The position numbers and the translations under genes are program-made. Source: a virus (lineage: Duplodnaviria; Heunggongvirae; Uroviricota; Caudoviricetes). Taken from it: a stretch of 64,000 nt of DNA. The stretch is taken from IMG/VR virus record IMGVR_UViG_3300036945_000745; one strand, 5' to 3'. Positions 7,291 through 52,273 of this stretch are shown here, one piece after another. The notes under the pieces were generated by a model. It did not search any database and was not told the origin of the DNA. It was given only the letters and a program-made list of their open reading frames with translations. Position 1 is the stretch's first letter. Each line of letters starts with the position of its first letter.

Positions 7291-7578
7291 AATTCAAATA
7301 TACGAATTTATTTTTAATTTACCAATTAATTTAAATAGAATAATTCTAATCCGTTTGGCATTCCTACGATAACTTCCATAGGAATTTGACTACTATGCAT
7401 CATAATTTATGAGTTTAAAGTTCTTCAACAATTCCCAATATTTCAGCTACAATGAATAACACACCTGCTACCCAAATATCGGATTTACATAATGCAATAC
7501 CAGCGCAAATTCGTAATGCAGATTTAACTACACTAATTCGAAAATGCCAATTCGTTTTTGATTCTTTTAGTTGTGCCA

Positions 7579-7821
7579 TTATAGTATAATTTTTTTGGTT
7601 ATGTTTAAAATTGTTTGCTCATCTTCTTTGGATAATCTCCAACTATTACCTAATAATTTACGAACAGAGATATCAAAATCGTTAGCATCATCACTCTCAT
7701 CTAAATGCCCATCTTCTTTAAGGGCTTGAACTAAATCTTTAATTTCACTATTCGAACATGCTGATAAAAAGTCATTAACATCAACTTCAATTTCATCTGG
7801 GTTTGTTTCAAAATACGGCAT
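7579..7821 (-). CDS. hypothetical acidic protein
   Basis: 80-aa ORF. Confidence 0.45.
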   Translation of the reverse strand: MPYFETNPDEIEVDVNDFLSACSNSEIKDLVQALKEDGHLDESDDANDFDISVRKLLGNSWRLSKEDEQTILNITKKIIL

Positions 7822-7855
7822 AATTTATATTTTTAAATGTTATTAAATTTTTATA

Positions 7856-7890
7856 CTCAAAAAAACATAGAACCCCACTAAAAGTGGGGT
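7856..7890 (-). terminator. intrinsic terminator after the AAA+ ATPase gene
   Basis: Minus-strand ACCCCACU-UUU-AGUGGGGU hairpin followed by UCUAUGUUUUUUU. Confidence 0.55.
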
Positions 7891-7952
7891 CTATGCAACC
7901 GGGGTGGGAGAGTTATGAGTATGAGTTATGAGTAATACCACCCCTTATATTT

Positions 7953-9176
7953 TTACCAAACAATTTCATCCTTTTGTGGTTCTTCCACAACGTTATCATA
8001 TAAGCCTGAATTATCTTCAGCTCTTACATACTTTTGAACTAATTGTTTGATGTAAGTACGTTCTGAATCCATACCACCATCTTGCGAATACATTGGGAAG
8101 ATAGCAACTTCAGCTGCTTCGATTAAGTTGAACCCATCGTAAATCAATCCAGCCATCTCTACCGAAGTACGAGTCGATACTGCTGTGCTAATTTTACCCA
8201 CATCGGATTTGATTTGCTCACGAGTGTGATGAGTGATTTCGGCAATTGCTCTTAAGTCCTCAGCGTTTGTATCGGGATACAACATAGTAAGTAATTCAAG
8301 CTCTTGCTCAGCGTTCAACACATCAACCTCAATCGTTACGAAACGGTCAACCAATGCACGGTCAAGAACACGTGTCGATGTAAATTCATTACCGATGTTA
8401 GCGGTAGCGATAAAGGTAACACCTTCGGCTACTTTAACGATTGGTGAATCAACAGCCTCATCCAAACGTAAGTAACGTTGGGTTTGGTCTAACACAGTCA
8501 TTAAGATATTCCATGCTTCGGGATGTGAACGGGATAACTCATCCAATAAGATAACTGAATACGGAGTCTTAATAGCTTTAACGAATGCTGATTCGTTGAA
8601 GTAAGTACCATCAGCTTTACTGAAGTGAGTATTACCAATAAGTGATGCTCTGGGGTCTTGCGTTGCTCCTAAGTTAAAGTAGAAGAACGGGCGATTAAGA
8701 GCTTCAACTAATGCTTTAGCTGCCATAGTTTTACCACTACCTGCAGGTCCAGTCATCATAATATTTTTTGCTCTAACTGCTGAACGAAGTAAGTATTTCC
8801 ACTTCAATTCAGTCATAATAAGATTCTTAGGTTTAAGGGAGATACCATCTTTGTGGATAAAATCGATAACTGCCGTATGGTCGGTTGGATTTTCAACCAC
8901 AGTCTCAGCGATTGCGGTGTTGATTGGTTTAACCAACATTTCCGTATATTGATTCATATCAACCATACGAAACGATTTCTGTCCGTTTTTATTGATGTGG
9001 GAACGGATAGCTGAACCACTTTTGTTTGCTTTCTTTCTAAGGAAAGATGAAACGATTGTAGAATCGGTTTCTACTTCACCGGCCGTATTAACTAAGTTAA
9101 AACGATTACCAACATTCTCAACTTTGTAGATTTCATTAGTGTAACCTACTAACACTTCTTTTTTTGAATTTCTCAT
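7953..9176 (-). CDS. AAA+ ATPase, MoxR/CobS-like (AAA_5)
   Basis: Walker A MMTGPAGSGKTM; Walker B VILLDELSRSHPEAWNILMTVLDQ; sits next to a vWA partner gene. Confidence 0.7.
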   Translation of the reverse strand: MRNSKKEVLVGYTNEIYKVENVGNRFNLVNTAGEVETDSTIVSSFLRKKANKSGSAIRSHINKNGQKSFRMVDMNQYTEMLVKPINTAIAETVVENPTDHTAVIDFIHKDGISLKPKNLIMTELKWKYLLRSAVRAKNIMMTGPAGSGKTMAAKALVEALNRPFFYFNLGATQDPRASLIGNTHFSKADGTYFNESAFVKAIKTPYSVILLDELSRSHPEAWNILMTVLDQTQRYLRLDEAVDSPIVKVAEGVTFIATANIGNEFTSTRVLDRALVDRFVTIEVDVLNAEQELELLTMLYPDTNAEDLRAIAEITHHTREQIKSDVGKISTAVSTRTSVEMAGLIYDGFNLIEAAEVAIFPMYSQDGGMDSERTYIKQLVQKYVRAEDNSGLYDNVVEEPQKDEIVW

Positions 9177-9225
9177 AACTCTATTTTTTTAAAGGATTAA
9201 TAATAACTCTCATTGTTATTACATA

Positions 9226-9260
9226 GTAAATATACGAAATATAATCGGTATTGCCAAATA
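9226..9260 (-). promoter_or_regulatory. long-form promoter (TTGGCAATACCGATTATATTTCGTATATTTAC)
   Basis: TTTG ... TATATTTA -33/-7-like elements upstream of 7953..9176; near-identical copies at 11670, 28025, 29267 and 31591. Confidence 0.5.
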
Positions 9261-9405
9261 TATTATCAATTATTTTAAAAATATTTCAGAAATATACCAT
9301 AAATAAGGGGTCAAATTCTCACATAAACCCGGCAGGAATCGATTATAATTACCCAATAAGGTCAGTATTCCATTCTTCATATTAGTATAGTTTAGATGTG
9401 TAACT

Positions 9406-9445
9406 CATTGATAATCAATGGGTCATAACTTATTGATTATCAACA
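9406..9445. promoter_or_regulatory. pair of palindromic TTGATAATCAA / TTGATTATCAA sites (operator candidates)
   Basis: Perfect 11-bp palindromes 25 bp apart in a long intergenic region; further copies at 11729, 11778, 29476 and a half-site at 31724. Confidence 0.4.
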
Positions 9446-9468
9446 CGTTATGAACCCATTGTTTTTTA

Positions 9469-11643
9469 CTACTTAGTAAGGAATAATTCATTCAAAGTCT
9501 TAGTGATTGGCATGATATCGTTAATGTTAATAAAACGGCTATCTTCACCATACATCGTTTTGAATTTACGTTTTGATGAGTCGGAGTCGTAATCAGATAC
9601 GAAATAAGCCATCACTCTAACACCCTGCTCTTTAATTTTCTTAACCATCTTACGAGTATGTAGTACGGCAACATCACCATAATAGTTAGTACCATCTTCA
9701 CTAAAGTTTGGCTCACCATCACATATGTTTAAGAAGTATGAATCCACATCTTTGGTAGTAGGAACAAAGTATTTCATAGTTGCTTCGTAACATAAACCTT
9801 CAGGCGTTGTACCATTAGCTCTAAGTGCAGGGAACAAACGTTTCACTTTATCAAACTTATCAACTCTACTATCATATGCCTGGCAGATGTAAGCTTTCGT
9901 ACCCCATATACCTCTAATTGTAACCTGAACATCTAAGTTAGAAACCATCGATGCTGCTTTACAAATAGCGATTGTAGTTGTAAGTGCCTTATCCCAAGTA
10001 CCACCACTCATAGAACCACTACCATCTAAACTGATATGTAAGTTAGCTTTCTTAAATTTATCTACATCCTTAGTACTGAATACATTTACATAATCATAAC
10101 CAAGTCCGGCAATCAATCTACGGTCAATCTTACCACTCTTTTGGCGGGGATTATCAGTAACACGCTCTTCACTACGAATTGCCAAACGTTTACCTAACAA
10201 CGTACCCAATTGAATACCCTTTCTTAAAGTTGCCTCATTGTATGAGTAGAACTTACCTTCGCCACCATATGTACTCCAATCAGCGAATGGGAAAGCGTAA
10301 TCTTTCATCAACTCTTCGGTCATACGTTTTGATACAATACATTGTGTACCTTTAAGGAACACACCATTAGTTTGAACTTCTCCACCCACACTAACCATTT
10401 CAGTACCACTTTTTTCAACAGAATCAAGCAACTGATTATCTTTCTTAGTAATTGCTTTCTTTTTGATTTGGTTATTGATAAAGTCTTTCTGATTCTGAAT
10501 CTTTTTGTCAAGTTGCTTCTTAACATTATCAGATAATGTTTCTTTAGCTTTACCATTGGCATCATCTTTATCACCATCAGCTTCAGAATTACTATCTTCA
10601 TCCGATTCACTACCATTCATATTTGGTTGATTTTTCATAGAACCACCGCCTGTTGAAGGAGATTGTTCATCATCTGAAGCATCATTGTCAATCTCATTTT
10701 GCTCACTTTCACCACCTTCACCACCACTACCTTCGGTTTGTTGTGGTTCACCATCTTTATCTTGCTCACCTTGTCCACCATCTTGTGGTTTTGGTTGTGA
10801 TTGTGGAAGCGGGTCAATTGCTAAACCAATGATTTCAGCGATTTGCTCAGCTACCAATAAACTATCATAAGTTGATTTTAATCTACTAATGTTTTTAAGT
10901 TCAACCAATGAATAAATCTTAGCCAAACCTTTAAGTTTGTTTAAAACAGTGTTAGGGTTTGTAAGATTGATAACACGGAACATATATGAATCAATTGTTT
11001 CATCAGTAAATTCATCGGAAACAATACCCTTATCAATTACTTTATCATTAAAGTATTCATCGTATAAAGCACGATAGTAATCTCTATAACCTGGACAAGT
11101 ATTGAAGATGTATTGGTCAATACGTCTATCTTCAATCCAATTGGTAAGGTTCTTAATTAACTGCCAAACCTCCCCATTGTAAACTCCCTTTACTTCAAAC
11201 AATTCTCTCAAACTTTGAGGAACTGAATAATTACTAAAGGTATCGAAATTTGTTAAATTAATGTGAGATGCTTCGTGCAATGCTAATCCAACCGCCACAT
11301 CAAATTTCTCTGGCTTAACTTCGGCTGATAATACTACCGATTTACCATCAGTATAAGAATCACCTTTTTTGTAAAACTTAACAGGGATATTTTTGTTGGT
11401 TAAGATATTAACAAAGTTACCAATTGCTCTTCGGTGAGCCGATAACCTTAACATTTCCACAGTCGATGATTGTGAAGATGATAACTTTTTTGTTTGAAAT
11501 GAATCCGTTTCAGCATCATAGTAAGATTCGGTAAACATTTCGTCATCATAGTTACTCCATTCATCAGCCCAAAAGGATGATGCGGATGATACTTTAGATT
11601 TTTTGTTGGAACTAAATTTGGATAGATAACTCATATTACTCAT
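9469..11643 (-). CDS. vWA-domain protein, CobT-like partner of the AAA+ ATPase
   Basis: C-terminal MIDAS motif DGSGSMSGGT; long acidic low-complexity linker (DDASDDEQS...SESDEDSNSEADGDKDD), as in CobT. Confidence 0.65.
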   Translation of the reverse strand: MSNMSYLSKFSSNKKSKVSSASSFWADEWSNYDDEMFTESYYDAETDSFQTKKLSSSQSSTVEMLRLSAHRRAIGNFVNILTNKNIPVKFYKKGDSYTDGKSVVLSAEVKPEKFDVAVGLALHEASHINLTNFDTFSNYSVPQSLRELFEVKGVYNGEVWQLIKNLTNWIEDRRIDQYIFNTCPGYRDYYRALYDEYFNDKVIDKGIVSDEFTDETIDSYMFRVINLTNPNTVLNKLKGLAKIYSLVELKNISRLKSTYDSLLVAEQIAEIIGLAIDPLPQSQPKPQDGGQGEQDKDGEPQQTEGSGGEGGESEQNEIDNDASDDEQSPSTGGGSMKNQPNMNGSESDEDSNSEADGDKDDANGKAKETLSDNVKKQLDKKIQNQKDFINNQIKKKAITKKDNQLLDSVEKSGTEMVSVGGEVQTNGVFLKGTQCIVSKRMTEELMKDYAFPFADWSTYGGEGKFYSYNEATLRKGIQLGTLLGKRLAIRSEERVTDNPRQKSGKIDRRLIAGLGYDYVNVFSTKDVDKFKKANLHISLDGSGSMSGGTWDKALTTTIAICKAASMVSNLDVQVTIRGIWGTKAYICQAYDSRVDKFDKVKRLFPALRANGTTPEGLCYEATMKYFVPTTKDVDSYFLNICDGEPNFSEDGTNYYGDVAVLHTRKMVKKIKEQGVRVMAYFVSDYDSDSSKRKFKTMYGEDSRFININDIMPITKTLNELFLTK

Positions 11644-11669
11644 TTTTATAGTTTAACTCTCAATTGTTA

Positions 11670-11704
11670 TACAATATACGAAAAATAATCGGTATTGCCA
11701 AACA
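11670..11704 (-). promoter_or_regulatory. long-form promoter copy
   Basis: Plus-strand caatatacgaaaaataatcggtattgccaaaca upstream of 9469..11643. Confidence 0.5.
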
Positions 11705-11802
11705 TTTATTAAAATATTTTTTAATGTATTGATTATCAACACATTAGGCATAAAAAAAGACCTACATATGTAAGTCTTTGATTATCAATTAGTTATGAAA
11801 TA

Positions 11803-12552
11803 CTACTTTTTTGAAGCCTGTTTAACCATAGCAACAGTTGCTTTATATACTGGCGATTCTTTATCATACTTCAAAGCGGATTTTACTTTAATCATTTTGC
11901 CCGTTTCAGGGTTCTTAACCATCTTATCAGCTATACCTTTTGGTAAAAGTGATTTCAATTGTGTCGGATTTGCTACCATCTTTTGAGAACCCGGCTCAGC
12001 TTTTGTTTGAACTTTTGGTTCATCAACTTTTTGTGGTTCATCTTTTGGTTCAAATGTAAATACTTGCCCACCTTTCAATTTACTATATCCTTGTGCTACT
12101 TTTCCAGGTGAGAACTTTCCAATATTAAATGCTTCACCTGATTTTGAATCGATGAATGTTGCCTCACCTTTTGCTTTAGTTTCTTCATCTGCAAATAATA
12201 CACTATCTTGCTCATACTTCTTACCCAATGATTGAACATCTTCTTTTGATATATTAGGTATGAATAACGATTTCTCTTGCGTTGGAACTTTCATATCATC
12301 CGGACAATCCTTATATTCGGTATCAGGCTTTCTACATTCTTGCCACATACCATCTACGTGAACAAATCCATATCCCATTTTACGCAAATCAGCTTCTAAT
12401 TCTTTGTTTCGTTGCTTATTTTCAGCAGATGTTAATTCACCTCTACTTGCTGTTACGACTCCCCAATTTTTCATTTTAGGATTAGAAACAACGTGCTGAT
12501 ATATTCTACCTAACGATGCTTCGTTTAAATCGTATCTTCCTGCTTTTATCAT
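11803..12552 (-). CDS. hypothetical protein with Lys-rich C-terminal tail shared with 54340..55173
   Basis: C-terminal KSLLPKGIADKMVKNPETGKMIKVKSALKYD matches SLKSLLPKDLEKTIKNPETGRMIKIKSALGYD in the other gene. Confidence 0.5.
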   Translation of the reverse strand: MIKAGRYDLNEASLGRIYQHVVSNPKMKNWGVVTASRGELTSAENKQRNKELEADLRKMGYGFVHVDGMWQECRKPDTEYKDCPDDMKVPTQEKSLFIPNISKEDVQSLGKKYEQDSVLFADEETKAKGEATFIDSKSGEAFNIGKFSPGKVAQGYSKLKGGQVFTFEPKDEPQKVDEPKVQTKAEPGSQKMVANPTQLKSLLPKGIADKMVKNPETGKMIKVKSALKYDKESPVYKATVAMVKQASKK

Positions 12553-12582
12553 TTGTATATTATCTTTGGTATAAATATAAAT

Positions 12583-12762: not shown

Positions 12763-12770
12763 TATTATAT

Positions 12771-13028: not shown

Positions 13029-13090
13029 CCACGATGCGATTCAGTTAGTAACATCCGCCGGCCGGCTTGGTGGTCTACCCCATATTACTA
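13008..13090 (-). other. tRNA-like fragment next to tRNA-Ser
   Basis: GGAUGG-UUCGAAU-CCUCC T-arm and a GCCGGCCGGC palindrome; no cloverleaf can be built. Confidence 0.25.
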
Positions 13091-13761: not shown

Positions 13762-14220
13762 TTAGATTTGAGTTGTTGCGTTATGAACATCCAATTCATC
13801 TTGCAACTGCTCAATTTTTACATTTAGAATATCCACTTTTTTTTGGATATCTACAATTGATAATTCTACTTCTTTTACTGAAACAACACTTCCATATCGG
13901 GAGTCTTGCTTTCCTTCATCCGTTGGAACTTTCTTTAATTCCTTTACCAAACCTTTCAATTCAGCCAATGCGAAGATTTTATCATACACCGGTTGGTTTG
14001 CTCTATGCAATTCGGCTTTCAATTGAACCAACTCATTTGTCAATTCAGTAACCTTATCCAATGCTTCTGCCATTGAATATCTACGAGGATTTCCTTCTTC
14101 TATTGAATTATACTTTTTCAAAATCTCATATTGAGCTTTCAAATCTGCAACCAATTTGTTTTTTGCCTTTAAGGCCTGCTTTACGTTCATATCTTTAAGT
14201 TTTATCGTTTTGTTTTTCAA
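13762..14220 (-). CDS. coiled-coil protein
   Basis: Heptad-rich 152-aa ORF. Confidence 0.5.
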   Translation of the reverse strand: MKNKTIKLKDMNVKQALKAKNKLVADLKAQYEILKKYNSIEEGNPRRYSMAEALDKVTELTNELVQLKAELHRANQPVYDKIFALAELKGLVKELKKVPTDEGKQDSRYGSVVSVKEVELSIVDIQKKVDILNVKIEQLQDELDVHNATTQI

Positions 14221-14255
14221 ATATACTATATTAATTTGGATTTTCCAAATTTATT

Positions 14256-16672: not shown

Positions 16673-17236
16673 TTATTTTAAGAATTCTATAATCTTTTCT
16701 TTTATTCCACTTTGTTTAATACCTTCTCTACTTTTAGGCGTTAATACGAAGTTATCTAACCCCCAGTTTTTCCAATCCTCACCATTCTTACCCATATCCA
16801 AATCATCAATAGAAACCCAATGTGTTATATCATTGTTATCTCTAAGATATTGAAGTATCTCCAATGAGCGAGATTGTTCTAAATCCCATTGTCGTGACCA
16901 TATGAAGTTTTCGGGTACATCACAATCACCTAAGTTTTTCGTAAAGGCGATTGGTTTCTTTTTGATTCCCTGTGATTCATAATATTCACCCATCTCCTCA
17001 ACACTTGCCCATCGTTTCCAATCAGATGAGATAACAATTTCAGCGTTAGTTTCTTCCAATATTTCATTTAGTATATTGATTGCTTTCTTATTAAAATTAT
17101 CAAATCGAGAAAGAACTGGCAATGAACCAACTGATTGACTTAGTTTACGTCCTGCTTCTCTTTGTTTCTTAAATCTACCTCCCCACTCTGTGGATAAACA
17201 TATAACACCATCGTGGTCTAAAAATATTACTTTCAT
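16673..17236 (-). CDS. HAD-superfamily phosphatase
   Basis: Motif I FLDHDGVI (DxDG) at the N-terminus. Confidence 0.55.
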   Translation of the reverse strand: MKVIFLDHDGVICLSTEWGGRFKKQREAGRKLSQSVGSLPVLSRFDNFNKKAINILNEILEETNAEIVISSDWKRWASVEEMGEYYESQGIKKKPIAFTKNLGDCDVPENFIWSRQWDLEQSRSLEILQYLRDNNDITHWVSIDDLDMGKNGEDWKNWGLDNFVLTPKSREGIKQSGIKEKIIEFLK

Positions 17237-17892
17237 TATTCTTCTTTTAAAGTATCTCTTAATTTTTTAATAGTTTCCAAATTATTATTTTCTAAATCCA
17301 ATGAATTTGGATAATATAATAATGTTGGATTCTTTTTCTGAATATCGATGTTTGGATATTTTTTTTTAAATTCCATTACATCAAATTTCTTAGTAATCAA
17401 ATGATGACCACTTTTTGTTGGAATTATTGATTCAATTTTAGAACCGTATGGTTTACATTCATTATCAATATACGCCATCATAATTGGACTTGCATCTTTT
17501 ATATCATCTACATCAATAATCCATCTCTTCTCTTGCGTTTTGATTTGACCAACTACTGAATCGAATAAACCTTTTTGATTTGTGTTACCATCTTGTATTC
17601 GTTGTGCGAGAGTAACCATCATATTCAAACTTACATCAAAATGATTTTGTTTCTGAATGTGTATATATGCTCTTGCTTTAAACATCTCACACATCTGAAT
17701 TACTTCATCCCATCTACGTTCTAAATGGTCAATACTCTCAATACAATAAGTTTTAATAGTTCTTACCGATTGATGATTATCCCTTTCACCTTCAGGCTGG
17801 TCCTTCTTACGTTTAAAAACATATAGCATATAGAAGTCACCCTTCGTTTCGAAGTTTAGTAACGGCTTTATTAACTTTAAATTGTTTATCAT
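17236..17892 (-). CDS. hypothetical protein, possibly AEP (primase-polymerase-like) fold
   Basis: WIIDVDD fits the hhhDhD motif and PTKSGHHLIT fits sGxGxH; the match is loose. Confidence 0.3.
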   Translation of the reverse strand: MINNLKLIKPLLNFETKGDFYMLYVFKRKKDQPEGERDNHQSVRTIKTYCIESIDHLERRWDEVIQMCEMFKARAYIHIQKQNHFDVSLNMMVTLAQRIQDGNTNQKGLFDSVVGQIKTQEKRWIIDVDDIKDASPIMMAYIDNECKPYGSKIESIIPTKSGHHLITKKFDVMEFKKKYPNIDIQKKNPTLLYYPNSLDLENNNLETIKKLRDTLKEE

Positions 17893-17920
17893 AACTTACA
17901 TTTTACTCCGTAAATATACG

Positions 17921-17954
17921 AAAAAAACCCCACATTGCCAAATAATTGTGAGGT
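17921..17954 (-). terminator. intrinsic terminator after the tRNA array
   Basis: Minus-strand hairpin CCUCACA...UGUGGGG followed by a U7 run. Confidence 0.5.
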
Positions 17955-20062: not shown

Positions 20063-20100
20063 ATACAAATATACAGAAAGTTTTTCAAATTTCCTAATAT
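20063..20100 (-). promoter_or_regulatory. RNA-gene-class promoter repeat (AGGAAnTTTGAAAAACTTTCTGTATATTTG)
   Basis: About 40-nt repeat shared with copies at 23463, 23584 and 24232; exact TATATTTG -7 box. Confidence 0.45.
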
Positions 20101-21994: not shown

Positions 21995-23462
21995 TTTAAA
22001 TATTCTTATAAAATTTTTACACTTTATCCTAATATGATGTCCTCTAACTTTGTACTAATATAATCCACTTTGCCTAAATTCAAGACTGCCGGATTTGCTA
22101 TCGTACTAAACATACCATTCCCTGTCCACTCATTTCTTTGCGGTTGCAGGTTACAAATTGTATGTTGCGTTAAAGTTTTCATCGTTAATATATATCTAAT
22201 TATTTTAATTTATTCATTTTTTTAAAAAAAGAGTTTTGGAAGGCGGAACTCTTAATATTGTACTTCTATCTGAACCGGCAATATTTTATCGTGTCTTATT
22301 GCGTTTTTGTTGAAAACCCTTCCGAAAAACAGCTACCCTTACTTACTTTTTAGTTTATGCTTTTAGGTCATTTAAACTAAGTTGCCTTATTAGCCAAGCA
22401 CAATCTTAAATGTGGACCACGAGAATCTTAATTGAGCGGTGAAAGGTGCTGCCCCCCTCCTCCTATCTGGAATGATAGGCGTGCTACTGTTACACTAACA
22501 CCGCTTATAAAAAAAGGATGAGAATACTCCTTTTGGCGAACCAGCTTTAGAAAGATTATTTGATTCCTTCCGTTTCCACACCCTTTTGAGGTGTACCAAT
22601 TCAATGTGGGTTAGTAATGCCAACCACTCATAGAGTTTCAAACTACTCTCTTCCTACTTATTTTCTTCAAGCCTCGCAGCCTGATTAGTTCTTGCGGAAT
22701 TAGAAACCTTTCAAAAGAATCACAGACCTCTTGCGGAGGTATCGTGGCAGGGAACAACTCCCTACTATGTACACACCTTTCATCTGAAACTGGTAAACAC
22801 TTTTGCTTAATTTGATTTATAAGTTTGCACTTCATACGGCAAATTGAGTTTTGGTTTGTAGATGGATTCGAGTAGTGGTTTACCACCAGCTCCGTTATCT
22901 TTTGAACAACAGAATACTATACTACTCAATGTGTTATCCCTAACACCATACATCAAGTCATCTTCAATAGAAGGGGTTGGTGCCCCACTCTAAAGGATAG
23001 TAACGCCACCACGCGTACACAGTCTTATCTTACGTCCTTTCGGATAGCTTGATTCTCAAGACCACTTTGGTATTGAATCACGCAATGATAAGGAGAGATT
23101 AAGTCCTTACTTCTCGCAATAATTCTATGAGTTATTCTTATTGATGTTCCCATCTCAACTGAACAATCTACGTTTGCCCAGTCATTTCGGCTCTTCGATG
23201 ATAGTGTTACCCCCATCTACAAAGTCAAAATGATATCTCACTTGCCTACTCAAGCTTATCTCCCTTACGGGGGAGTAGCCGCAGTTACATTAACCAATGT
23301 ACCCACTTTATCCTACTTTCGTAGTTTATTTCACGACCATAGGCGGCCGTTGTTACACTATGTAGAACGAATCTACTATGTGTAATCTTTTCAGTATTTT
23401 AAAGAACATTTTTGAAGTTGAATACCGAGTATCTTTCATTACCTATAAGTTTCAAACTTATT

Positions 23463-23503
23463 ATAAAGATACGAAAAGTTTTTCAAACTTCCTAATTTAT
23501 TTT
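23463..23503 (-). promoter_or_regulatory. RNA-gene-class promoter repeat, reading into the ORF-free region
   Basis: Plus-strand ataaagatacgaaaagtttttcaaacttcctaatttatttt. Confidence 0.4.
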
Positions 23504-23583: not shown

Positions 23584-23622
23584 CAAATATACGAAAACAT
23601 TTTCACATTTCCTAATTTATTT
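23584..23622 (-). promoter_or_regulatory. RNA-gene-class promoter repeat, reading into the ORF-free region
   Basis: Plus-strand caaatatacgaaaacattttcacatttcctaatttattt. Confidence 0.45.
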
Positions 23623-23754: not shown

Positions 23755-23768
23755 CAAATATACGGAAA
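23755..23768 (-). promoter_or_regulatory. promoter for initiator tRNA-fMet
   Basis: TATATTTG -7 box about 40 nt upstream of the tRNA 5' end. Confidence 0.45.
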
Positions 23769-23806
23769 AAAATAAAAAATACAAAATAATTTTTACTTTT
23801 TTTTTG

Positions 23807-24211
23807 TGGAGGTGGAGGGAGTCGAACCCTCGTCCAAATACGGAGTTAATAACCATCGTTCACAAGCTTATTTAGTTTTTCTTAACTAACAAAATAAATA
23901 GTTTCTAATTCCCCGTTGCTACTATTAAACTTAGATGGTTCTATTGTTAAGGATAATTACCAAAAACACTTCCTATTTCTTTTCGGATAGAAATCACACC
24001 TGGTTTCACATTCTTTTTTACCTCACGATGTGTGCGAGGAAGGATTAGGCTGCTACAGCGTAATCGGCACCTACGAAAGACATTGCATCTTCGAAGGTCA
24101 TTGTAGATAATTCTACTGCGTTTATTGTTCGATAGGTATTTACGGATTTCCATCTAACCCGGCTTGCATCAACTTACCAATTCATCGTACCTGTCAAATC
24201 CAGGCACCCCC
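23807..24211 (-). ncRNA. ssrA: tmRNA (SsrA)
   Basis: 5' GGGGGUGCCUGGAUUUGACAGG and 3' GAGGGUUCGACUCCCUCCACCUCCA form a tRNA-Ala-like acceptor with G3:U70. Internal reading frame ...GCCGAUUACGCUGUAGCAGCCUAA encodes ...GADYAVAA followed by a stop. Confidence 0.8.
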
Positions 24212-24231: not shown

Positions 24232-24271
24232 CAAATATACAGAAAGTTTTTTAAACTTCCAAATTTATTTT
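24232..24271 (-). promoter_or_regulatory. promoter for tmRNA
   Basis: RNA-gene-class repeat; -7 box TATATTTG about 20 nt upstream of the mature tmRNA 5' end. Confidence 0.5.
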
Positions 24272-26035: not shown

Positions 26036-26419
26036 TTATAATCCTACTTCTTCCCAATTAGAATTGTTGAATCCAGCATCTCTTTTAACTGATACGGATA
26101 GTGCTCTATTACGTTCTTCATCTTTTGAAGAGTTGTTATTGATTAGGATACGTTCCTCTCTACCAATACCCATTACTAATTGATGGAATTGAAATCCTGC
26201 GTTTCCTAATTGTCTAACGGTTACTCCTCTCAAAGAATCAGGTCGTGCGGTAGTGATTACAATGTGATGTCCGGCATCAATCCACTCTCTAAATTTCTCT
26301 GCAGCGCCTGGTAGAACTTCAAAGTTATTTTCATTTAGTTCATTAAAATCTACTTGTCTTAAAAGAGTTCCATCGATATCACAAAAGATAGTTTTTACAT
26401 TTTTCTGGCTCATACTCAT
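26036..26419 (-). CDS. small HAD-family phosphatase (nucleotidase-like)
   Basis: Motif I IFCDIDGTLL. Confidence 0.5.
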   Translation of the reverse strand: MSMSQKNVKTIFCDIDGTLLRQVDFNELNENNFEVLPGAAEKFREWIDAGHHIVITTARPDSLRGVTVRQLGNAGFQFHQLVMGIGREERILINNNSSKDEERNRALSVSVKRDAGFNNSNWEEVGL

Positions 26420-26477
26420 TACGTTTTTATTGACAACAAATATACAAAATATATCCGATATATCAAAGCTTTTTTAC

Positions 26478-27425: not shown

Positions 27426-28013
27426 TTATAAACAAGCAATTGCTTTTTCAATATTAGATTCCGAATAACCATACGTTTTAGCTTTCTCAATAGCTTTCTC
27501 TAAGGATAACACACCAAACACATATTCACCAGCGATTAACCCTCTAAGAGTTTTGATTGCCGATGGCCAACTTCCATGCGGAGCGGCGTTGTTACAACTA
27601 ACATACTTAGCGTAAGATTCTATCTTAGTACCATTTTCGGTTACATTACCCTCACCATATTCGTAGATATCTTCCATACCATTGTATTTACCACCTGAAA
27701 GAGAATTAACGAAACCAGCGATTGATTTCCATTCTTTACTATCGTAATCCACATCAGAACCATCAGCGTTACATACATAAACCGAAACCGAATTACCATT
27801 AGCGAATGTTTCTGAACTAGCCCATACCAATAAGTTAGGGAAGTTTTTCTTAACGAATTGTTTTGAGATGGAAGCAACTTCTTTACGTCCGATACGGATG
27901 AAAGGAGTTTCGATTGGCTCACCCCAATAATTTGTAGTGATTAAACAATTAGATGGTACTTCACAAACCATTCCAGCGTAGTTGAATTTCATTTTAGTTT
28001 TCATATCTCTCAT
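27426..28013 (-). CDS. hypothetical protein
   Basis: 195-aa ORF. Confidence 0.5.
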   Translation of the reverse strand: MRDMKTKMKFNYAGMVCEVPSNCLITTNYWGEPIETPFIRIGRKEVASISKQFVKKNFPNLLVWASSETFANGNSVSVYVCNADGSDVDYDSKEWKSIAGFVNSLSGGKYNGMEDIYEYGEGNVTENGTKIESYAKYVSCNNAAPHGSWPSAIKTLRGLIAGEYVFGVLSLEKAIEKAKTYGYSESNIEKAIACL

Positions 28014-28024
28014 TTTTTATTACA

Positions 28025-28062
28025 TAGTAAATATACGAAATAAATTTGGAATTGCCAAATAT
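28025..28062 (-). promoter_or_regulatory. long-form promoter copy
   Basis: Plus-strand gtaaatatacgaaataaatttggaattgccaaata upstream of 27426..28013. Confidence 0.45.
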
Positions 28063-28063
28063 T

Positions 28064-28408
28064 TTACAGAGTATTTTTAATATTTTTTATATGTTTACAC
28101 TCTTTTCCTCTACCCCACCCATATGCCGGGCAACTACAATTCCAAATTCCACCATCATTTAATACATTATATACATTACCCCTACTACCATCTACTTTAT
28201 ATGCTTTTCTAATATAAACTTTTTTAGGTGCACGTCTTACAATAGATGTACTATATGTAGCTTTACGCCACATCCTATTAAGCTCTTCCCATTCGTATTT
28301 CCTATCCACCTTAACCCATCCTAATTTAGAATCGGTAGTTGCTATATACCATTGCCCATCTACTACGGATTGAAAGGAAACTGGTGGTAATAATGAATTT
28401 ATAATCAT
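28064..28408 (-). CDS. SWIM-type zinc-finger protein
   Basis: CSCPAYGWGRGKECKH (CxC-x10-CxH). Confidence 0.45.
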   Translation of the reverse strand: MIINSLLPPVSFQSVVDGQWYIATTDSKLGWVKVDRKYEWEELNRMWRKATYSTSIVRRAPKKVYIRKAYKVDGSRGNVYNVLNDGGIWNCSCPAYGWGRGKECKHIKNIKNTL

Positions 28409-28870: not shown

Positions 28871-29251
28871 TTAAAGATATTCAGGACCATAAACACCAAA
28901 GCGGGCACTACCATCGATAATGTTTCCTCTCGCATGCTTTGCCGGAGCTTTCCAAGTTGCCGGTTTTAATAAATCACCTTTCTTAATTGGAGCACCTTTT
29001 AGTACATCATCAACTCTACTGATGAATCCCCAACACATTGTACCATCCCATAAACGAATGAATTTGTTTCCGATTTCAACCGTCAACTCTTTCCATTGAC
29101 TTAACGTATCAGATTTAACGTAATAATCTTTACGTTCAGCGTTTACTTTTTCAACGAATGTTTTAACGATTGGGTTAGCTTCTAAATAATCGATAGCTTT
29201 TTGATTTGTAGTTCTCATAACTAATTTGGTTTTATTATTAATGTCTCTCAT
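28871..29251 (-). CDS. hypothetical protein
   Basis: 126-aa ORF. Confidence 0.45.
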   Translation of the reverse strand: MRDINNKTKLVMRTTNQKAIDYLEANPIVKTFVEKVNAERKDYYVKSDTLSQWKELTVEIGNKFIRLWDGTMCWGFISRVDDVLKGAPIKKGDLLKPATWKAPAKHARGNIIDGSARFGVYGPEYL

Positions 29252-29266
29252 TTACTTAGTAAATAT

Positions 29267-29293
29267 ACGAAGAATAATCGGTATTGCCAAATA
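29267..29293 (-). promoter_or_regulatory. long-form promoter copy (about 35 nt shared with the 31569 copy)
   Basis: Plus-strand taatgtctctcatttacttagtaaatatacgaagaataatcggtattgccaaata. Confidence 0.45.
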
Positions 29294-29507
29294 TTTTATC
29301 AATTATTTTTGGAAAATTGAAAATATTTTCATAGGCTGTTTAGATATAAGGGGTCTAAAACGTACATAAACCCCCCAAATTACCCCTAAAATGCCCCAAT
29401 AAGGTACTAACTCCGCCTAACGTATTATAGCGGTTTATATACACAAAGTGTTGAAAACCAATAAGTTATAACTCATTGATAATCAACGGGTTACATATTA
29501 TAATATT

Positions 29508-31232: not shown

Positions 31233-31583
31233 TTATTTGTTATCGTTGATATTTCCGTAATGATTCATTATCATCATTAACACATTAAGATAGTGTAAGA
31301 ATTGTTCACTCTTTGTACCATCTATCATTTTAATAGTACATACATTCCATATTTCCATTCCACTACCTCTATCTACATCAAATGGAACTTCACCATCGGT
31401 TTCCCAATTTGGGGTAGCTAATATAGTAATATCGTTTTTCTCATCTCTCCATTCCAACGTACCACTCATACTATCTATACTCCCTTTAAAACTACCGATT
31501 TCTGAAATTTCACTTAGAATTTCCTCCGAACTAATGTAACTTTTACTCATTTTTGATTGATTTTGATTATTAATGTCTCTCAT
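31233..31583 (-). CDS. hypothetical protein
   Basis: 116-aa ORF. Confidence 0.45.
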   Translation of the reverse strand: MRDINNQNQSKMSKSYISSEEILSEISEIGSFKGSIDSMSGTLEWRDEKNDITILATPNWETDGEVPFDVDRGSGMEIWNVCTIKMIDGTKSEQFLHYLNVLMMIMNHYGNINDNK

Positions 31584-31590
31584 TTACTTA

Positions 31591-31620
31591 GTAAATATAC
31601 GAAAAAAGATTGGATTGCAC
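31591..31620 (-). promoter_or_regulatory. long-form promoter variant
   Basis: Plus-strand taatgtctctcatttacttagtaaatatacgaaaaaagattgg. Confidence 0.4.
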
Positions 31621-31774
31621 AAGCTTTTTACCAAAATATTTGTAAAATTCAAAAATTTTTTATAGAAAACCAACCCGTTACATATAGAAAAAACCTTAAT
31701 ATAAGGCAAAAAAATAACCCATTGGTTATCAATGAGTTATAATGCGTTAAAAATCAATAAGTTAGCGAGATACC

Positions 31775-47424: not shown

Positions 47425-47499
47425 TTACTTTTCTTTTTTCTTTTAAATCTATCCAATATCAATTCTATTAAGAACGAAATTATCTTTAACATATATTAT

Positions 47500-47676
47500 T
47501 CATCTCGCTTCATTAATAGGTTATGGATTGGTGTCCAAATACAATATACACCTATTGCTTCCAAAAAGTTTAATTTTGGGAAATTTGGAACTATTTGTGT
47601 AACATATGATAATGCCAATCCAATTACACAGGTTACGATTGTAACGTTAGTGACTAATTTTAGTTTTTCGTTCATT
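47500..47676 (-). CDS. small single-TM protein directly downstream of the endolysin (holin candidate; 59 aa, below the ORF-track cut-off)
   Basis: Manual translation MNEKLKLVTNVTIVTCVIGLALSYVTQIV...; position only. Confidence 0.3.
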
Positions 47677-47697
47677 TATTTGTAGTTTATATTGTAA

Positions 47698-47712
47698 CAA
47701 ATATACGAAAAG
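47698..47712 (-). promoter_or_regulatory. promoter between the endolysin terminator and the holin-candidate/thyA genes
   Basis: Plus-strand caaatatacgaaaag, i.e. CTTTTCGTATATTTG on the minus strand. Confidence 0.45.
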
Positions 47713-47728
47713 TTTGTTACAAATCCAA

Positions 47729-47756
47729 ATAAAAAAGGGAAAACTTTCGTTCTCCC
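47729..47756 (-). terminator. terminator after the endolysin gene (hairpin is also T-flanked on the plus strand)
   Basis: GGGAAAAC-UUUC-GUUCUCCC with A/T runs on both sides. Confidence 0.45.
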
Positions 47757-47763
47757 TTTTCTT

Positions 47764-48606: not shown

Positions 48607-48618
48607 AGTTCTCTGAAT

Positions 48619-49389: not shown

Positions 49390-49392
49390 AGT

Positions 49393-50439
49393 TTATCCTT
49401 TAGCGCCGGTATCAGCGGCTTTTGCTTTAATACCAATTGCTTCTGCAAATTTATTTGAACGATGTACTAATGGTACAATTGGTTCATCAATAACTCTAAC
49501 TTGCATTGGAATTTGTTCCTTTGGGTGAGATGCGTTATATGCTACAATTGCTGCCCATCTATGGTGTCCATCTAATACATATCCGTCATTCGAAACATAT
49601 ATAGGTGCGGTAATAGATGGATGCTTTGGATTTTCTTCCAATGCTTTTTCCATACCAGCTACTTTTACACCAACTAATTCAGATTGAGTTGCTTTTAATC
49701 TATCCGGTGGAACTGCCGCCGGCTGCGATACGTTTATACCTTGCTTCTCCAACATTTGTTTAAAGAACTCTTCGGTATCAGCTTCTCCACTTTTATCTTT
49801 TGGTAACTTATCGGCAGGAGAACCTGGTTCAGGCGTTCCTTTGAATTGTGGCATATCCTCACGAGGAATACCTTTGTTACCATCACAATATAAGTTGGTA
49901 CCTGGAATTGAAACCTGGCATAAATTAAAGTTTGGTGCTTTTTCACCACTTGCTTTTGCCTGATTACCTAACTCTGCCAACTTATCTATAATAGTAGATA
50001 TTTGTTGTCTTTCTACGGGAGTTACTTTGGATAATGGTTTGTTTGAAAAATCTGCACCTGGCATCAAATCTTTCAATTTGGGAATACCATTACTTTTTTC
50101 AGCAGATGTTTTTAAATCACTACCGCTCAATTTTTGTCCAGGTTTAGTGGGTGCAGTATTTTGTGGAGTTTGTTTTGGCTGAGGTTCGCCTTTTGGTAGT
50201 ACTCCATTATTAGCTTGCTTAGTTTTTTCAATTTCAGCAGGAGATGGTTTATCGTGTTTGGATGGGTCAAAGGTTTGAACCACATAAACGTTACCCGTCT
50301 TTTTGTTCTTTACAACATCTTCCTCCGTTAATAATGATTTAAGTTTTATCATTTTATCTACCTTGTCCTCTATATTTCTTTGGCTTTTGTTCTTTAGGGC
50401 CGAAATTCTTTTTAAATTTACCAGTTCCTTTTTTTCCAA
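49393..50439 (-). CDS. ParB-like nuclease-domain protein with low-complexity N-terminal half
   Basis: C-terminal SNDGYVLDGHHRWAAIVAYN (DGHHR ParB/Srx motif). Confidence 0.5.
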   Translation of the reverse strand: MEKKELVNLKRISALKNKSQRNIEDKVDKMIKLKSLLTEEDVVKNKKTGNVYVVQTFDPSKHDKPSPAEIEKTKQANNGVLPKGEPQPKQTPQNTAPTKPGQKLSGSDLKTSAEKSNGIPKLKDLMPGADFSNKPLSKVTPVERQQISTIIDKLAELGNQAKASGEKAPNFNLCQVSIPGTNLYCDGNKGIPREDMPQFKGTPEPGSPADKLPKDKSGEADTEEFFKQMLEKQGINVSQPAAVPPDRLKATQSELVGVKVAGMEKALEENPKHPSITAPIYVSNDGYVLDGHHRWAAIVAYNASHPKEQIPMQVRVIDEPIVPLVHRSNKFAEAIGIKAKAADTGAKG

Positions 50440-50518
50440 AGGAAGCCTTTTGTGCGGTATTCGCAGATTTTGCTTTTGCCATCTAAAAATTAAGTTATTC
50501 TCTGATTGATTTGATTGA

Positions 50519-50785
50519 TTACTTTACTTTTGGTGTAGAAGCCTTTTTAGCCTTTACAGTTTTAGCAACTGTTTCTACAACATTGATTGCTGCTTCATTT
50601 TCGGAAACGATTTCTGCGGCTTGTTTAGTAGCCTTTTTTGCCTTTGAAATTCCCGATTTAACTTTTTGAGTTACTTTCTTTGTTTCAGGTGCAATTACTT
50701 CCACTTGATTTACAAATATTTCAGCAGCGTTTTCAATCTGTTCTGCTTTTGCAAAAAGATTTTTAATAAATGCGAATAATCCCAT
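50519..50785 (-). CDS. Ala/Lys-rich small protein
   Basis: 88 aa, AKKA repeats. Confidence 0.4.
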   Translation of the reverse strand: MGLFAFIKNLFAKAEQIENAAEIFVNQVEVIAPETKKVTQKVKSGISKAKKATKQAAEIVSENEAAINVVETVAKTVKAKKASTPKVK

Positions 50786-50849
50786 TGTTTTTGTTTTTAG
50801 TTAAAGATTTATTTTAAATATAAATATAAAAAATTTTTAGATTAAATTA

Positions 50850-51278
50850 TTATAGTTGATTTTTTAATTCTGATGAAGATTGTATTTTATCGCCTAATCC
50901 ATCTACTAATGATATTCCCAATTCATTACATAAATCTTTCTCCAAAATAGTATCTCCAAATTGGTCTCCGCCATTTGTAAATATGTATTTATCAGCTTTT
51001 ATGAATTTATGAATGAAATCTATACTACGTTTTACACTTCTATCCTCATCTATGGATATTAAAGTGTAATTTACACATTTTAATTCATCTATAATATCTT
51101 TTCTTTCTAATTCATTTTGAAATGGTTTAGAGCCTTTTAATCCAACTTGCATATCATTGTTAATAATGACTATAAGTGAATCTCCCAACTCTCTACTTCT
51201 TTTAAGATATTCGATGTGTCCTTTGTGTAATGGATTAAAATATCCACTTGCTATTACTAATGTTTTAATCTTCGCCAT
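50850..51278 (-). CDS. cytidylyltransferase-like nucleotidyltransferase (TagD/RfaE-domain-II type)
   Basis: IASGYFNPLHKGHIEYLK (HxGH motif); 142 aa. Confidence 0.6.
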   Translation of the reverse strand: MAKIKTLVIASGYFNPLHKGHIEYLKRSRELGDSLIVIINNDMQVGLKGSKPFQNELERKDIIDELKCVNYTLISIDEDRSVKRSIDFIHKFIKADKYIFTNGGDQFGDTILEKDLCNELGISLVDGLGDKIQSSSELKNQL

Positions 51279-51513
51279 ATAGTGAGAATCGTTTTACTTC
51301 TTTTTCTACTTCTTTAGATTTTATTATTTCTACCGTTCCCTTTCTTGCTTCAATATAAAAATTGGTATCTTCATTAATTTGAAACCAACCTTCTAGAGCA
51401 TCAGTAAGAGATGGATAAATGCCTTTCTGACTACCATCGGCAAATATCCATCTATCTCCTGGAGGAACTCGTTTAAGAACTAATATTTTTTCTTCTTTGA
51501 GTTCTTTTTCCAT
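51265..51513 (-). CDS. hypothetical protein
   Basis: 82-aa ORF. Confidence 0.4.
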   Translation of the reverse strand: MEKELKEEKILVLKRVPPGDRWIFADGSQKGIYPSLTDALEGWFQINEDTNFYIEARKGTVEIIKSKEVEKEVKRFSLYGED

Positions 51514-51515
51514 AA

Positions 51516-51722
51516 TTAAAATACTTCTAAGATTTTAGTATCGGATACCTTAACTACTTCATATTCCAAATTCACACCTTCAGATACGAATTTTTGAACC
51601 AATTTAGCTTCCGCTTCGGTTACCGATAAGGCATCAACTAAATAGTTTTCTCTGTTCTTTTTAATTTTACCTTTTGCATCTTCCACTTCGACTGCTACCA
51701 TTACTGAATAATACTTTGCCAT
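51516..51722 (-). CDS. hypothetical protein
   Basis: 68-aa ORF. Confidence 0.4.
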   Translation of the reverse strand: MAKYYSVMVAVEVEDAKGKIKKNRENYLVDALSVTEAEAKLVQKFVSEGVNLEYEVVKVSDTKILEVF

Positions 51723-51792
51723 AATTTTGTTTTTTGTTAATTATTTATTTTATTTAATGTTTCAAATATACAATTATTTTTGGAAATTACCA

Positions 51793-51818
51793 AATAAAAA
51801 AGGGAGAATTTATCTCCC
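51793..51818 (-). terminator. intrinsic terminator
   Basis: Minus-strand GGGAGAUAAAUUCUCCC followed by UUUUUU. Confidence 0.5.
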
Positions 51819-51824
51819 TTTAAT

Positions 51825-52007
51825 TTAATTACCACTCTTAGTTTCTTCAACCGATGCTTGTCTATAATCGGTAACCAATTTCTTTAAGTCACCAATTGCA
51901 GTTCTTGCATTTTTTTTAGATACTTTAGTTGTCTTGTTGTGTTCTTCTTCAAATTTTGTAAACAACGATTTCATTGTTTCGAAAATTTCCTGCGTCTTAC
52001 TAGCCAT
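51825..52007 (-). CDS. hypothetical protein
   Basis: 60-aa ORF. Confidence 0.35.
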   Translation of the reverse strand: MASKTQEIFETMKSLFTKFEEEHNKTTKVSKKNARTAIGDLKKLVTDYRQASVEETKSGN

Positions 52008-52060
52008 AATTTTAATTTTTAATTAAACAAATATAAGGAGATTATTTTAAATTAACAAAT

Positions 52061-52261
52061 TTATCTTCCCCTTTTTCTTTTCAGCTCCATTTCTTTTAGA
52101 TATTTTGCTGTGTATTTATTTTCAACGGATATTGGTCCGAATGGTTGCTTATTTAAATCGTATTTCCAAATCGATGTACAATCCTCATCTTCGAATATGT
52201 ATTCAAATTTGCGAGGTTTTTCGGTTTTACTATTATTCTCTTTAATTACTTTCATACTCAA
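52061..52261 (-). CDS. hypothetical protein
   Basis: 66-aa ORF. Confidence 0.35.
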   Translation of the reverse strand: MSMKVIKENNSKTEKPRKFEYIFEDEDCTSIWKYDLNKQPFGPISVENKYTAKYLKEMELKRKRGR

Positions 52262-52273
52262 ATATACGGAAAA
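52259..52273 (-). promoter_or_regulatory. promoter upstream of 52061..52261
   Basis: Plus-strand caaatatacggaaaa. Confidence 0.4.

Follow-up and report, generated by a model that had tools for sequence, protein, structure and literature searches.

Large virulent phages carry uniform sets of promoters for the host RNA polymerase, as in the early regions of T4 and T5. Here we describe such a set in 64,000 nucleotides (nt) of DNA from a member of the Caudoviricetes (IMG/VR record IMGVR_UViG_3300036945_000745); this whole stretch is called the window. As with the T4 and T5 early promoters, its members are numerous, near-identical, co-oriented, of host type and by prediction very strong, they stand before small early or auxiliary genes and transfer RNA (tRNA) genes, and some lie in repeated cassettes, but the sigma type and the host phylum differ. 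The closest described promoters are those of the Bacteroidota primary sigma factor (sigma-A, Bacteroides fragilis type, or sigma-ABfr), deduced in Bacteroides as TTTG at -33 and TAnnTTTG at -7 according to the account of Bayley et al. 2000 that is given in PMC7366714. Transcription start maps of Flavobacterium johnsoniae (PMC6847099) and F. psychrophilum (PMC9723704) likewise place TTTG at -33 and TAnnTTTG at -12 to -5, and promoters of F. johnsoniae also have AT-rich motifs at -18 and -28 (PMC6847099). We conclude that the motif in the window is real and most probably an unusually clean promoter set of this known type in a new phage. A literature search found no papers on promoters of these phages.

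The exact plus-strand sequence AAATATACGAAA occurs six times in the window against 0.07 expected, and 14 times with up to one mismatch against 2.0 expected; every copy lies on the plus strand (6/6 and 14/14). Enrichment of intergenic k-mers independently returned GTATATTT(G/A) as the top oriented motif. The full element is a 40-nt bipartite motif with the consensus AAATAAATTTGG-(A/C)AAT-N-TTTTCGTATATTT(G/A). When the spacings N=15-23 were scanned, T[TA]GG-N18-GTAT[AC]TT gave 16 minus-strand matches, every one at N=18; the other spacings gave none on the minus strand and a single one, at N=16, on the plus strand. A 40-nt matrix trained on 18 sites and applied with a cut-off of at least 20 bits found 21 minus-strand matches but not one plus-strand match. 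In Markov simulations 0.2 matches reached 15 bits or more, and the leave-one-out scores of the sites range from 22.7 to 41.3 bits. Beyond the training set the matrix added 52036, 1331 and a doubtful intragenic site, 61574. An earlier note on this DNA had counted at least 16 intergenic copies, all oriented for minus-strand transcription. The orientation is confirmed throughout; the number holds for the degenerate family but not for the 12-mer as it was written, and the intergenic placement holds for 19-20 of the 21 matrix sites, the doubtful 61574 lying within an open reading frame (ORF).

Across the 21 sites the -7 box reads TATATTTG in 11 cases, TATATTTA in five, TATCTTTA and TATATTGT in two each and TATCTTCA in one. 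TA and TTT are invariant or nearly so, G is absent from the two free positions, and the last base is G or A in 18/21. All sites have TT(T/A)G(G), exactly 20 nt and then TA, so that the TTTG earlier put at about 21 nt upstream of the box is present, at a spacing that can now be given precisely. C-14 is found in 12 of the 18 training sites; G-13 was fixed by the pattern used for site selection, and two sites found by the matrix alone have T and C at -13. Between 32 and 47 kilobases (kb) the matrix scan shows no class-1 site, as we call these elements, and between 53 and 64 kb it shows the doubtful one only; genes in both regions are tightly packed or overlap, which fits long operons there.

Predicted starts were set at the anchor G, by which sites are named, minus 13 (47706, for example, is the site at 47698..47729), with the -7 box at -12 to -5 as in the Flavobacterium start maps. 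On this numbering a site would comprise an A-rich tract from about -46 to -37, TTTG at -36 to -33, mostly as TTTGG, AAT near -29, a T-run at -18 to -15, C-14 and G-13, and TATATTT(G/A) at -12 to -5, with the start about 5 nt past the last base of the -7 box. The assignment of the core to the Bacteroidetes sigma-A architecture, which the earlier note had made, agrees with TTTG at -33 and TAnnTTTG at -12 to -5. Its expectation of starts 6-8 nt past the boxes does not agree with the Flavobacterium maps, which give about 5 nt after the G of TAnnTTTG (PMC6847099, PMC9723704). The phage sites share with sigma-ABfr promoters both elements, including the position of the G of TTTG at -33, free -7 positions without G (TAHHTTTG), AT-rich blocks near -28 and -18 and a pattern enriched in Bacteroidota genomes. 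The coincidence of their T-run at about -18 and AAT at about -28 with the AT-rich motifs of F. johnsoniae counts for reading by sigma-A. In contrast to the cellular promoters, the phage set is far more uniform, has a near-fixed C-14 G-13 and at one site in four carries A at -5, and its strong -33 element, extended to TTTGG, differs from the barely visible -33 of the F. johnsoniae logo.

The window has a G+C content of 30-41% and all its credible genes lie on the minus strand. Transcription of the minus strand would begin anew at each site, and the unit so opened would be a short cluster of genes or a gene for a stable RNA. The sites are listed below with their predicted starts; scores are leave-one-out values except for sites that were not in training.

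1323..1354, minus strand: class-1 promoter TTAGG-N-ACTATCTTTA; start 1318, 13 nt before ORF 814-1305; B-like flanks; repeat family D10; 24.6 bits, not in training.
4337..4368, minus strand: class-1 promoter, clustering with sub-family A; start 4332, 19 nt before ORF 3945-4313; 22.7 bits.
7295..7326, minus strand: class-1 promoter; start 7290, the A of the ATG of ORF 7012-7290, hence a candidate leaderless mRNA; 26.0 bits.
9227..9258, minus strand: sub-family A promoter TTTGGCAATACCGATTAT-ATTTCGTATATTTA, in a D4 cassette; ahead of a 10-codon upstream ORF (ATG 9213) and the AAA/MoxR-like ATPase ORF 7953-9176; 39.1 bits.
11671..11702, minus strand: sub-family A promoter; start 11666, 23 nt before the 724-amino-acid ORF 9469-11643; 33.4 bits.
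14218..14249, minus strand: class-1 promoter; start 14213, 23 nt before the in-frame ATG 14190 of ORF 13762-14220; 28.5 bits.
17911..17942, minus strand: class-1 promoter inside the terminator hairpin after tRNA-Gln; start 17906, 14 nt before ORF 17236-17892; 31.2 bits.
20066..20097, minus strand: sub-family B promoter, D5; start 20061, ahead of tRNA-Glu from 20027 and then the Thr-Asp-Arg sub-array; 35.6 bits.
23464..23495, minus strand: sub-family B promoter TTAGGAAGTTTGAAAAACTTTTCGTATCTTTA; start 23459, the likely origin of a GOLLD transcript of about 945 nt; 30.3 bits.
23584..23615, minus strand: sub-family B promoter; start 23579, ahead of a conserved non-coding stretch of about 75 nt that resembles locus L103 past its promoter at 1599; 33.0 bits.
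23755..23786, minus strand: class-1 promoter; start 23750, ahead of tRNA-Met from 23710; 27.6 bits.
24232..24263, minus strand: sub-family B promoter; start 24227, 16 nt before the mature 5' end (24211) of transfer-messenger RNA (tmRNA); 33.3 bits.
26437..26468, minus strand: class-1 promoter; start 26432, 13 nt before the HAD-like ORF 26036-26419; 27.3 bits.
28028..28059, minus strand: sub-family A promoter, D4; start 28023, 10 nt before ORF 27426-28013; 41.3 bits.
29260..29291, minus strand: sub-family A promoter, D4; start 29255, 4 nt before ORF 28871-29251 (MRDINN...); 37.4 bits.
31592..31623, minus strand: sub-family A promoter, D4; start 31587, 4 nt before ORF 31233-31583 (MRDINN...); 23.6 bits.
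47698..47729, minus strand: class-1 promoter immediately behind a terminator; start 47693, 18 nt ahead of ORF 47496-47675, with thyA following this ORF; 26.6 bits.
51763..51794, minus strand: class-1 promoter behind a terminator; start 51758, 36 nt ahead of ORF 51516-51722; 24.5 bits.
52028..52059, minus strand: class-1 promoter with T for G at -13, D5; start 52023, 16 nt before ORF 51825-52007; 25.0 bits, not in training.
52259..52290, minus strand: class-1 promoter; start about 52254/5, at the in-frame ATG 52255 of ORF 52061-52261, hence a candidate leaderless mRNA; 28.6 bits.
61566..61597, minus strand: doubtful class-1 site within ORF 61199-61837, with the poor -7 box TATCTTCA; 23.5 bits.

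The predicted starts fall 0-46 nt ahead of start codons or of mature RNA 5' ends. For protein genes the leader would have a length of 0 nt at 7290 and at about 52255, of 4 nt ahead of 29251 and 31583, and otherwise of 10-36 nt; the leaders of stable RNAs would measure 16 nt to the mature tmRNA end, 40 nt to tRNA-Met and 34 nt to tRNA-Glu. Several sites adjoin terminator hairpins on the downstream side of these, and 17919 is nested within one. Being strand-specific and intergenic, with fixed spacing, close to starts, often placed after a terminator and in one case kept in a relative, the sites appear to behave as promoters.

Two extended sub-families, A and B, had been distinguished before, at coordinates that prove right to within a few nucleotides. 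Both were recovered here in two independent ways, by a direct-repeat search (D1/D4 and D5/D7) and by clustering on non-core positions. The clustering yields three groups, with within-group identities of 55-75% against about 28% expected: group A (9235, 11679, 28036, 29268, 31600 and 4345), group B (20074, 23472, 23592 and 24240, plus 52036) and a small third group C (7303, 47706 and 51771). Sub-family A coincides in part with the direct repeat D4.

9181-9296, 27982-28097, 29214-29329 and 31546-31661, minus strand: 116-nt sub-family A cassette (direct repeat D4) of promoter, leader and first codons.

This repeat extends across the leader (ACTAWGTAA...) into the first codons ATGAGAG, which encode MRD or MRV; the two proteins with a common MRDINN start are otherwise unrelated. 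The cassette, of at least 116 nt, appears to stand before small genes that have no assigned function. Group A thus looks like a duplicated or converted promoter-leader cassette, and not necessarily an operator. Three sub-family A promoters also have a palindromic hairpin repeat, TAACTCATTGATAATCAATGGGTTA (D16), at a distance of about 170-200 nt on their upstream side (9401-9433, 29469-29501 and 31715-31747), which suggests an intergenic module consisting of a terminator-like hairpin, about 150 nt, and the promoter with its leader. In group B the spacer GGAAGTTTGAAAAACTT forms a 6-bp dyad, AAGTTT-N3-AAACTT, and the predicted initial transcribed sequence is TAATAAGTT. As had been noticed earlier, this group precedes RNA genes: the tmRNA, the tRNA-Glu/Thr/Asp/Arg sub-array, and an ORF-free region that comprises the conserved non-coding stretch of about 75 nt and the GOLLD RNA. 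The division between B and A looks more like one between RNA genes and protein genes.

DNA and protein searches of GenBank phages gave no close relative, the only matches being weak ones to huge uncultured phages. The nearest cultured relative is the Flavobacterium phage vB_FspM_immuto (160 kb), with at least nine proteins in common at 29-62% identity, and the window phage appears to be distantly related to the Flavobacterium myophage Immutovirus. Applied to the first 50 kb of immuto with a 12-bit cut-off, the window matrix picks out nine sites on the coding strand and nothing on the opposite strand, and an annotated gene begins 20-60 nt downstream of every one of the nine. In viral contigs the pattern with the correct spacing matched more than 117 loci, while a pattern whose spacer was one base too long, the mis-spacing control, matched 29; about 55 of 117 viral loci encode homologues of window proteins, and further co-oriented copies of the motif are found there. 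Site 47706 together with its terminator tail differs at two positions from the orthologous site of locus L052, where the flanks have diverged and the downstream 59-amino-acid protein is 46% identical. Related phages each have a uniform spacer variant of their own, the orthologous promoters of L060 sharing a spacer unlike that of the window, and the dyad spacer of group B, between -31 and -16, recurs in the same RNA-gene region of L073. Unrelated viral contigs (L001, L021, L025 and L029; L004, L007 and L008) have their own extremely uniform versions of the architecture, one being TTTGG-N-TTTTTTTCGTACCTTTGC, with up to 18 copies in 15 kb, and another AAATAAATTTGGAATATAA-N-GTTGTATATTTGT.

Evidence on the host comes from bacterial genomes and from the translation starts of the phage. 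An 18-base pattern, TTGGNAA-N12-TTCGTATATTT, was sought in one genome per bacterial species. Among the 80 matches listed, 58 (72%) are in Bacteroidota, 6 (8%) in Ignavibacteria/Kapaibacteria/Chlorobi and 14 in other phyla, with 2 unnamed. At flanking bases that the pattern leaves unconstrained, G follows TATATTT in 59% and T precedes TTGG in 61% of 118 matches from 120 genome loci. A protein in common with the window is encoded at only 6 of the 120 loci, so that these matches are not the phage lineage found again; a tRNA lies downstream of 1 of 111 matches. In a small sample of Bacteroidota loci TTTG-N20-TAnnTTTG is the modal arrangement (19 at N20, 14 at N19 and 5-7 at each other spacing), with a T-rich -18 region and no fixed CG ahead of the -7 box. 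Shine-Dalgarno cores are found at 3 of 87 window starts against 7.3 expected, and A makes up 67-71% of bases at -13 to -11; translation starts of F. johnsoniae have the same A-rich, Shine-Dalgarno-poor context (PMC6847099). Sites of the E. coli sigma-70 type (TTGACA, 16-18 nt, TATAAT) are not enriched in the window, with 66 against 84.5 +/- 8.4 in shuffles. The genome distribution, the translation starts, the related viral contigs and the cultured Flavobacterium phage all bear out the earlier view that these promoters indicate the host phylum, and a host in the Bacteroidota, probably in the Flavobacteriia, is well supported by these comparisons. From the motif, its geometry, orientation, placement, conservation and taxonomic association, all of them directly observed, we infer recognition by sigma-A: the sites are, with high probability, some 20 strong promoters of a large virulent phage that are read by the host RNA polymerase in complex with sigma-ABfr, the primary sigma factor of Bacteroidota.

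Several observations weigh against this reading. Promoter activity and the exact start sites are predictions from sequence, and 14 of the 80 listed genome matches lie beyond the Bacteroidota and their sister lineages. The uniformity of C-14 and G-13 is much greater than in the small host promoter sample, leaving room for a phage-specific reader, and the motif can also be read as TTGGCA-17-TATATT, which matches the sigma-70 consensus at 10/12 positions, so that geometry alone does not exclude an enzyme of the sigma-70 type. The relative Mel-JY01 (PP395634.1; locus L268, its stretch from 80 to 130 kb), which was deposited as a Microcystis phage and has several proteins in common with the window, contains five gene-oriented matches of at least 15 bits in 50 kb, for example CTTGCATACGTCAAAGAATTTGCGTATATTTGT twice. 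The motif thus tracks phage lineage as well as host, and the control of same lineage and other host phylum is ambiguous: either the real host of Mel-JY01 is a Bacteroidota member of the non-axenic culture or the motif is partly lineage-bound. The host assignment of Mel-JY01 may merit re-examination. If instead a phage-encoded sigma factor or a phage-modified polymerase were the reader, TTTGG, C-14, G-13 and the genome-specific spacers would be a phage code. The excess of uniformity over host promoters, the private spacer variant of each related phage and the sites in a relative reported on a cyanobacterium would all suit such a code. We nevertheless consider it improbable, since all known sigma-A contact positions are at consensus with the right spacing, the 18-base pattern occurs mainly in Bacteroidota chromosomes without genes in common with the phage, and no gene for a sigma factor, polymerase or regulator was seen among the approximately 55 proteins scanned, within 64 kb of the genome. 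Ordinary promoters of the sigma-70 type (-35 TTGGCA, 17 nt, -10 TATATT) in a host outside the Bacteroidota would account for the 10/12 score of sub-family A against the E. coli consensus, for the TTG-N20-TA geometry common to both promoter types and for the deposition of Mel-JY01 as a Microcystis phage. That explanation is very improbable in view of conservation that runs past the -10 hexamer through T-7, T-6 and (G/A)-5, while ACA of the -35 is not conserved; the lack of enrichment of sigma-70-like sites, the 72-80% share of Bacteroidota and their allies among the 80 matches listed, the depleted Shine-Dalgarno cores with Flavobacterium-like start context and a closest cultured relative that infects Flavobacterium point the same way.

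Two further alternatives concern what the sites do. Repeats that serve in recombination or packaging, terminators or remnants of mobile elements are brought to mind by the group A cassette and its upstream hairpin repeat, which recall mobile promoter/stem-loop modules of other phages. However, the strict co-orientation with genes, the conservation of two blocks where sigma makes contact, always the same distance apart, the placement 0-46 nt before starts, stable-RNA genes included, and the occurrence of the same motif before annotated genes of a cultured phage unrelated in DNA and in bacterial chromosomes make a non-promoter role hardly credible. That A, B and the remaining sites are temporal classes, set by phage regulators acting on spacers and flanks such as the AAGTTT-N3-AAACTT dyad, is an idea with more to recommend it, as the non-core positions form discrete groups, the dyad spacer recurs in the RNA-gene region of L073 and the L060 orthologues share a spacer distinct from that of the window. 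Yet annotation with Pfam and PHROGs of the approximately 55 window proteins assigned almost no functions to the genes behind the promoters, so that no temporal class can be assigned. The likeness within group A is a 116-nt repeat running through leader and codons, such as duplication or gene conversion gives without any regulator, and group B correlates with stable-RNA gene type, not demonstrably with timing. Temporal classes therefore seem to us unlikely, although less so than the other alternatives, and promoters read by host sigma-A remain the preferred reading.

The stable-RNA genes of the window comprise 25 tRNAs, the tmRNA at 23804-24211 and a full-length GOLLD RNA, and some of their leaders contain sequences resembling boxA, for which the consensus GYTCTTTAANA (PMC5725501) and, from a Bacteroidia CRISPR leader listed by Stringer et al., the example AGTTCTTTGACA given in the supplement of PMC7665894 are known.

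22515..23459, minus strand: GOLLD RNA (RF02032), with the Rfam 3' domain at 22515-22929 and a conserved 5' half that probably reaches the start at 23459.
24225-24214, minus strand: weaker boxA variant GTTATTTGAAAT in the tmRNA leader.
23727-23717, minus strand: boxA-like GTTCTTTAAAA in the tRNA-Met leader, an exact consensus match.
23407-23397, minus strand: boxA-like GTTCTTTAAAA in the GOLLD leader, an exact consensus match.
20060-20050, minus strand: boxA-like GTTCTTTGATA in the leader of the tRNA-Glu array, a near match.

The GOLLD match scores 292.2 bits against a gathering threshold of 150 and covers model positions 1-416. The ORF-free region past 23463 and 23584 consists of GOLLD, as 3' domain and 5' half, and small conserved RNA-like stretches. 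The 5' half is also conserved in L073 and L103, where the same RNA island carries tandem promoters of the group B type. In the window, L073 and L103 (3/3) the GOLLD 3' domain is preceded, at a distance of 490-535 nt, by a promoter, and this shared arrangement implies a GOLLD transcript of about 900-950 nt. In L249, a bacterial genome locus from the promoter-pattern scan, the translated GOLLD 5' half finds a match at 57% identity, which suggests a GOLLD-bearing prophage or a phage contig within the genome assembly.

Other conserved features surround GOLLD. Directly 3' of it, at about 22436-22505 on the minus strand of the window and about 460-530 on the minus strand of L103, is a cloverleaf-like element that has three arms, an acceptor-like stem of 7 bp and an "anticodon" loop of 6 nt; four of its base pairs are preserved by two-sided changes between the two, and neither ARAGORN nor Rfam made a call on it. 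Two conserved non-coding stretches at 23579-23500 and 23459-23410 (minus strand) each have their own promoter, with counterparts in L103 past the promoter at 1599 and in L073 past the promoter at 5189. Folding of the stretches after promoters 23592 and 23472 shows no significant stability (z-scores +0.35 to -1.6), and the stretch GTTGAAGCC..., common to L073 and L103, was not seen in the window. The phage tmRNA (23804-24211, minus strand) has an unusually long predicted tag, AVELSTMTFEDAMSFVGADYAVAA, and together with the 25 tRNAs, which cover most amino acids, it makes up a large translation-related RNA set.

A boxA-like GTTCTTT(A/G)A, exact or near-exact, is present in 3 of the 5 RNA-gene leaders; that of promoter 23592 has no boxA-like sequence. 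The only two exact copies of GYTCTTTAANA in the window both lie within RNA-gene leaders. Against 0.71 expected this number is not significant by itself, which tells against a role for boxA, and with one mismatch boxA is not enriched (21 against 18.5 expected). The case for boxA accordingly rests on placement and conservation: it occurs in all three GOLLD leaders (window, L073 and L103), 25-60 nt past the proximal promoter, and also in tRNA leaders of relatives. As in the boxA/Nus antitermination of ribosomal RNA operons and CRISPR arrays, boxA stands in untranslated leaders of non-coding RNA shortly after the promoter; here, however, it would act on phage tRNA, tRNA-array and GOLLD transcripts, and no boxB or boxC partner was identified. 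It would probably recruit host NusB/NusE, shielding the untranslated transcripts from Rho and allowing terminators to be read through. Read-through of this kind may extend the GOLLD unit to the 14 tRNA genes at 21960-20571, a block that has a terminator ahead of it and no class-1 promoter of its own. It is possible, if doubtful, that the promoters of the RNA genes belong to an expression module of their own, made up of a class-specific sigma-A promoter with dyad spacer, an initial transcribed sequence common to the group and boxA, and conserved across a clade of uncultured Flavobacteriia phages. Such a module would define the GOLLD unit of about 900-950 nt and let a boxA-modified polymerase read through terminators into the 14-tRNA block.

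A second oriented motif, ATATTTATA, has nine copies on the minus strand and one on the plus strand, eight of them intergenic. The minus-strand copies, with 5' ends at 56223, 50827, 45798, 40073, 38358, 35307, 26026, 18732 and 12578, lie 12-62 nt ahead of ATGs and include regions without class-1 sites. Their number in the window is not significant alone; in 32 related loci the coding strand is favoured by 38 to 4, often right after terminators. The motif lacks a -33 block. It may be a sigma-A promoter that has the -7 box only (TATATTTA), or else a class of its own; for the latter it is a better candidate than the division of A from B. T4-type late promoters consist of TATAAATA with no -35 element. 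ATATTTATA is likewise a single AT-rich block without an upstream element, but it differs in sequence and is equally readable as a -33-less TATATTTA box. Its identity as a T4-type late promoter was rejected, the sequence not being TATAAATA and no late sigma factor being present among the proteins scanned.

Among the auxiliary proteins that could be annotated are a thymidylate synthase, an RNA ligase, RNA-repair HAD domains, a MoxR-like ATPase and glycosyltransferases, as well as a GHMP kinase, an APS kinase, a SAM lyase, a SAM decarboxylase and a GH19-type endolysin. An 80-nt direct repeat of 81% identity (11839-11918 and 54364-54443) lies inside ORFs 11803-12552 and 54340-55173, both on the minus strand, and suggests that these ORFs, one of them SAM-lyase-like, have paralogous domains.

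Although the promoter type itself is already well known, its occurrence here gives a host assignment from sequence only for an uncultured large phage and dozens of related contigs, a transcription-unit map for a region of mostly unassigned proteins and, for genetic tools in Flavobacteriia, a consensus of very strong promoters that can be used as it stands. The most useful by-product is the set of probable transcript starts for the GOLLD RNA, the tmRNA and the tRNAs, for whose transcripts a testable antitermination mechanism is suggested. The RNA-gene module, if true, would for the first time tie the expression of GOLLD to phage tRNA arrays and to antitermination by host Nus factors.

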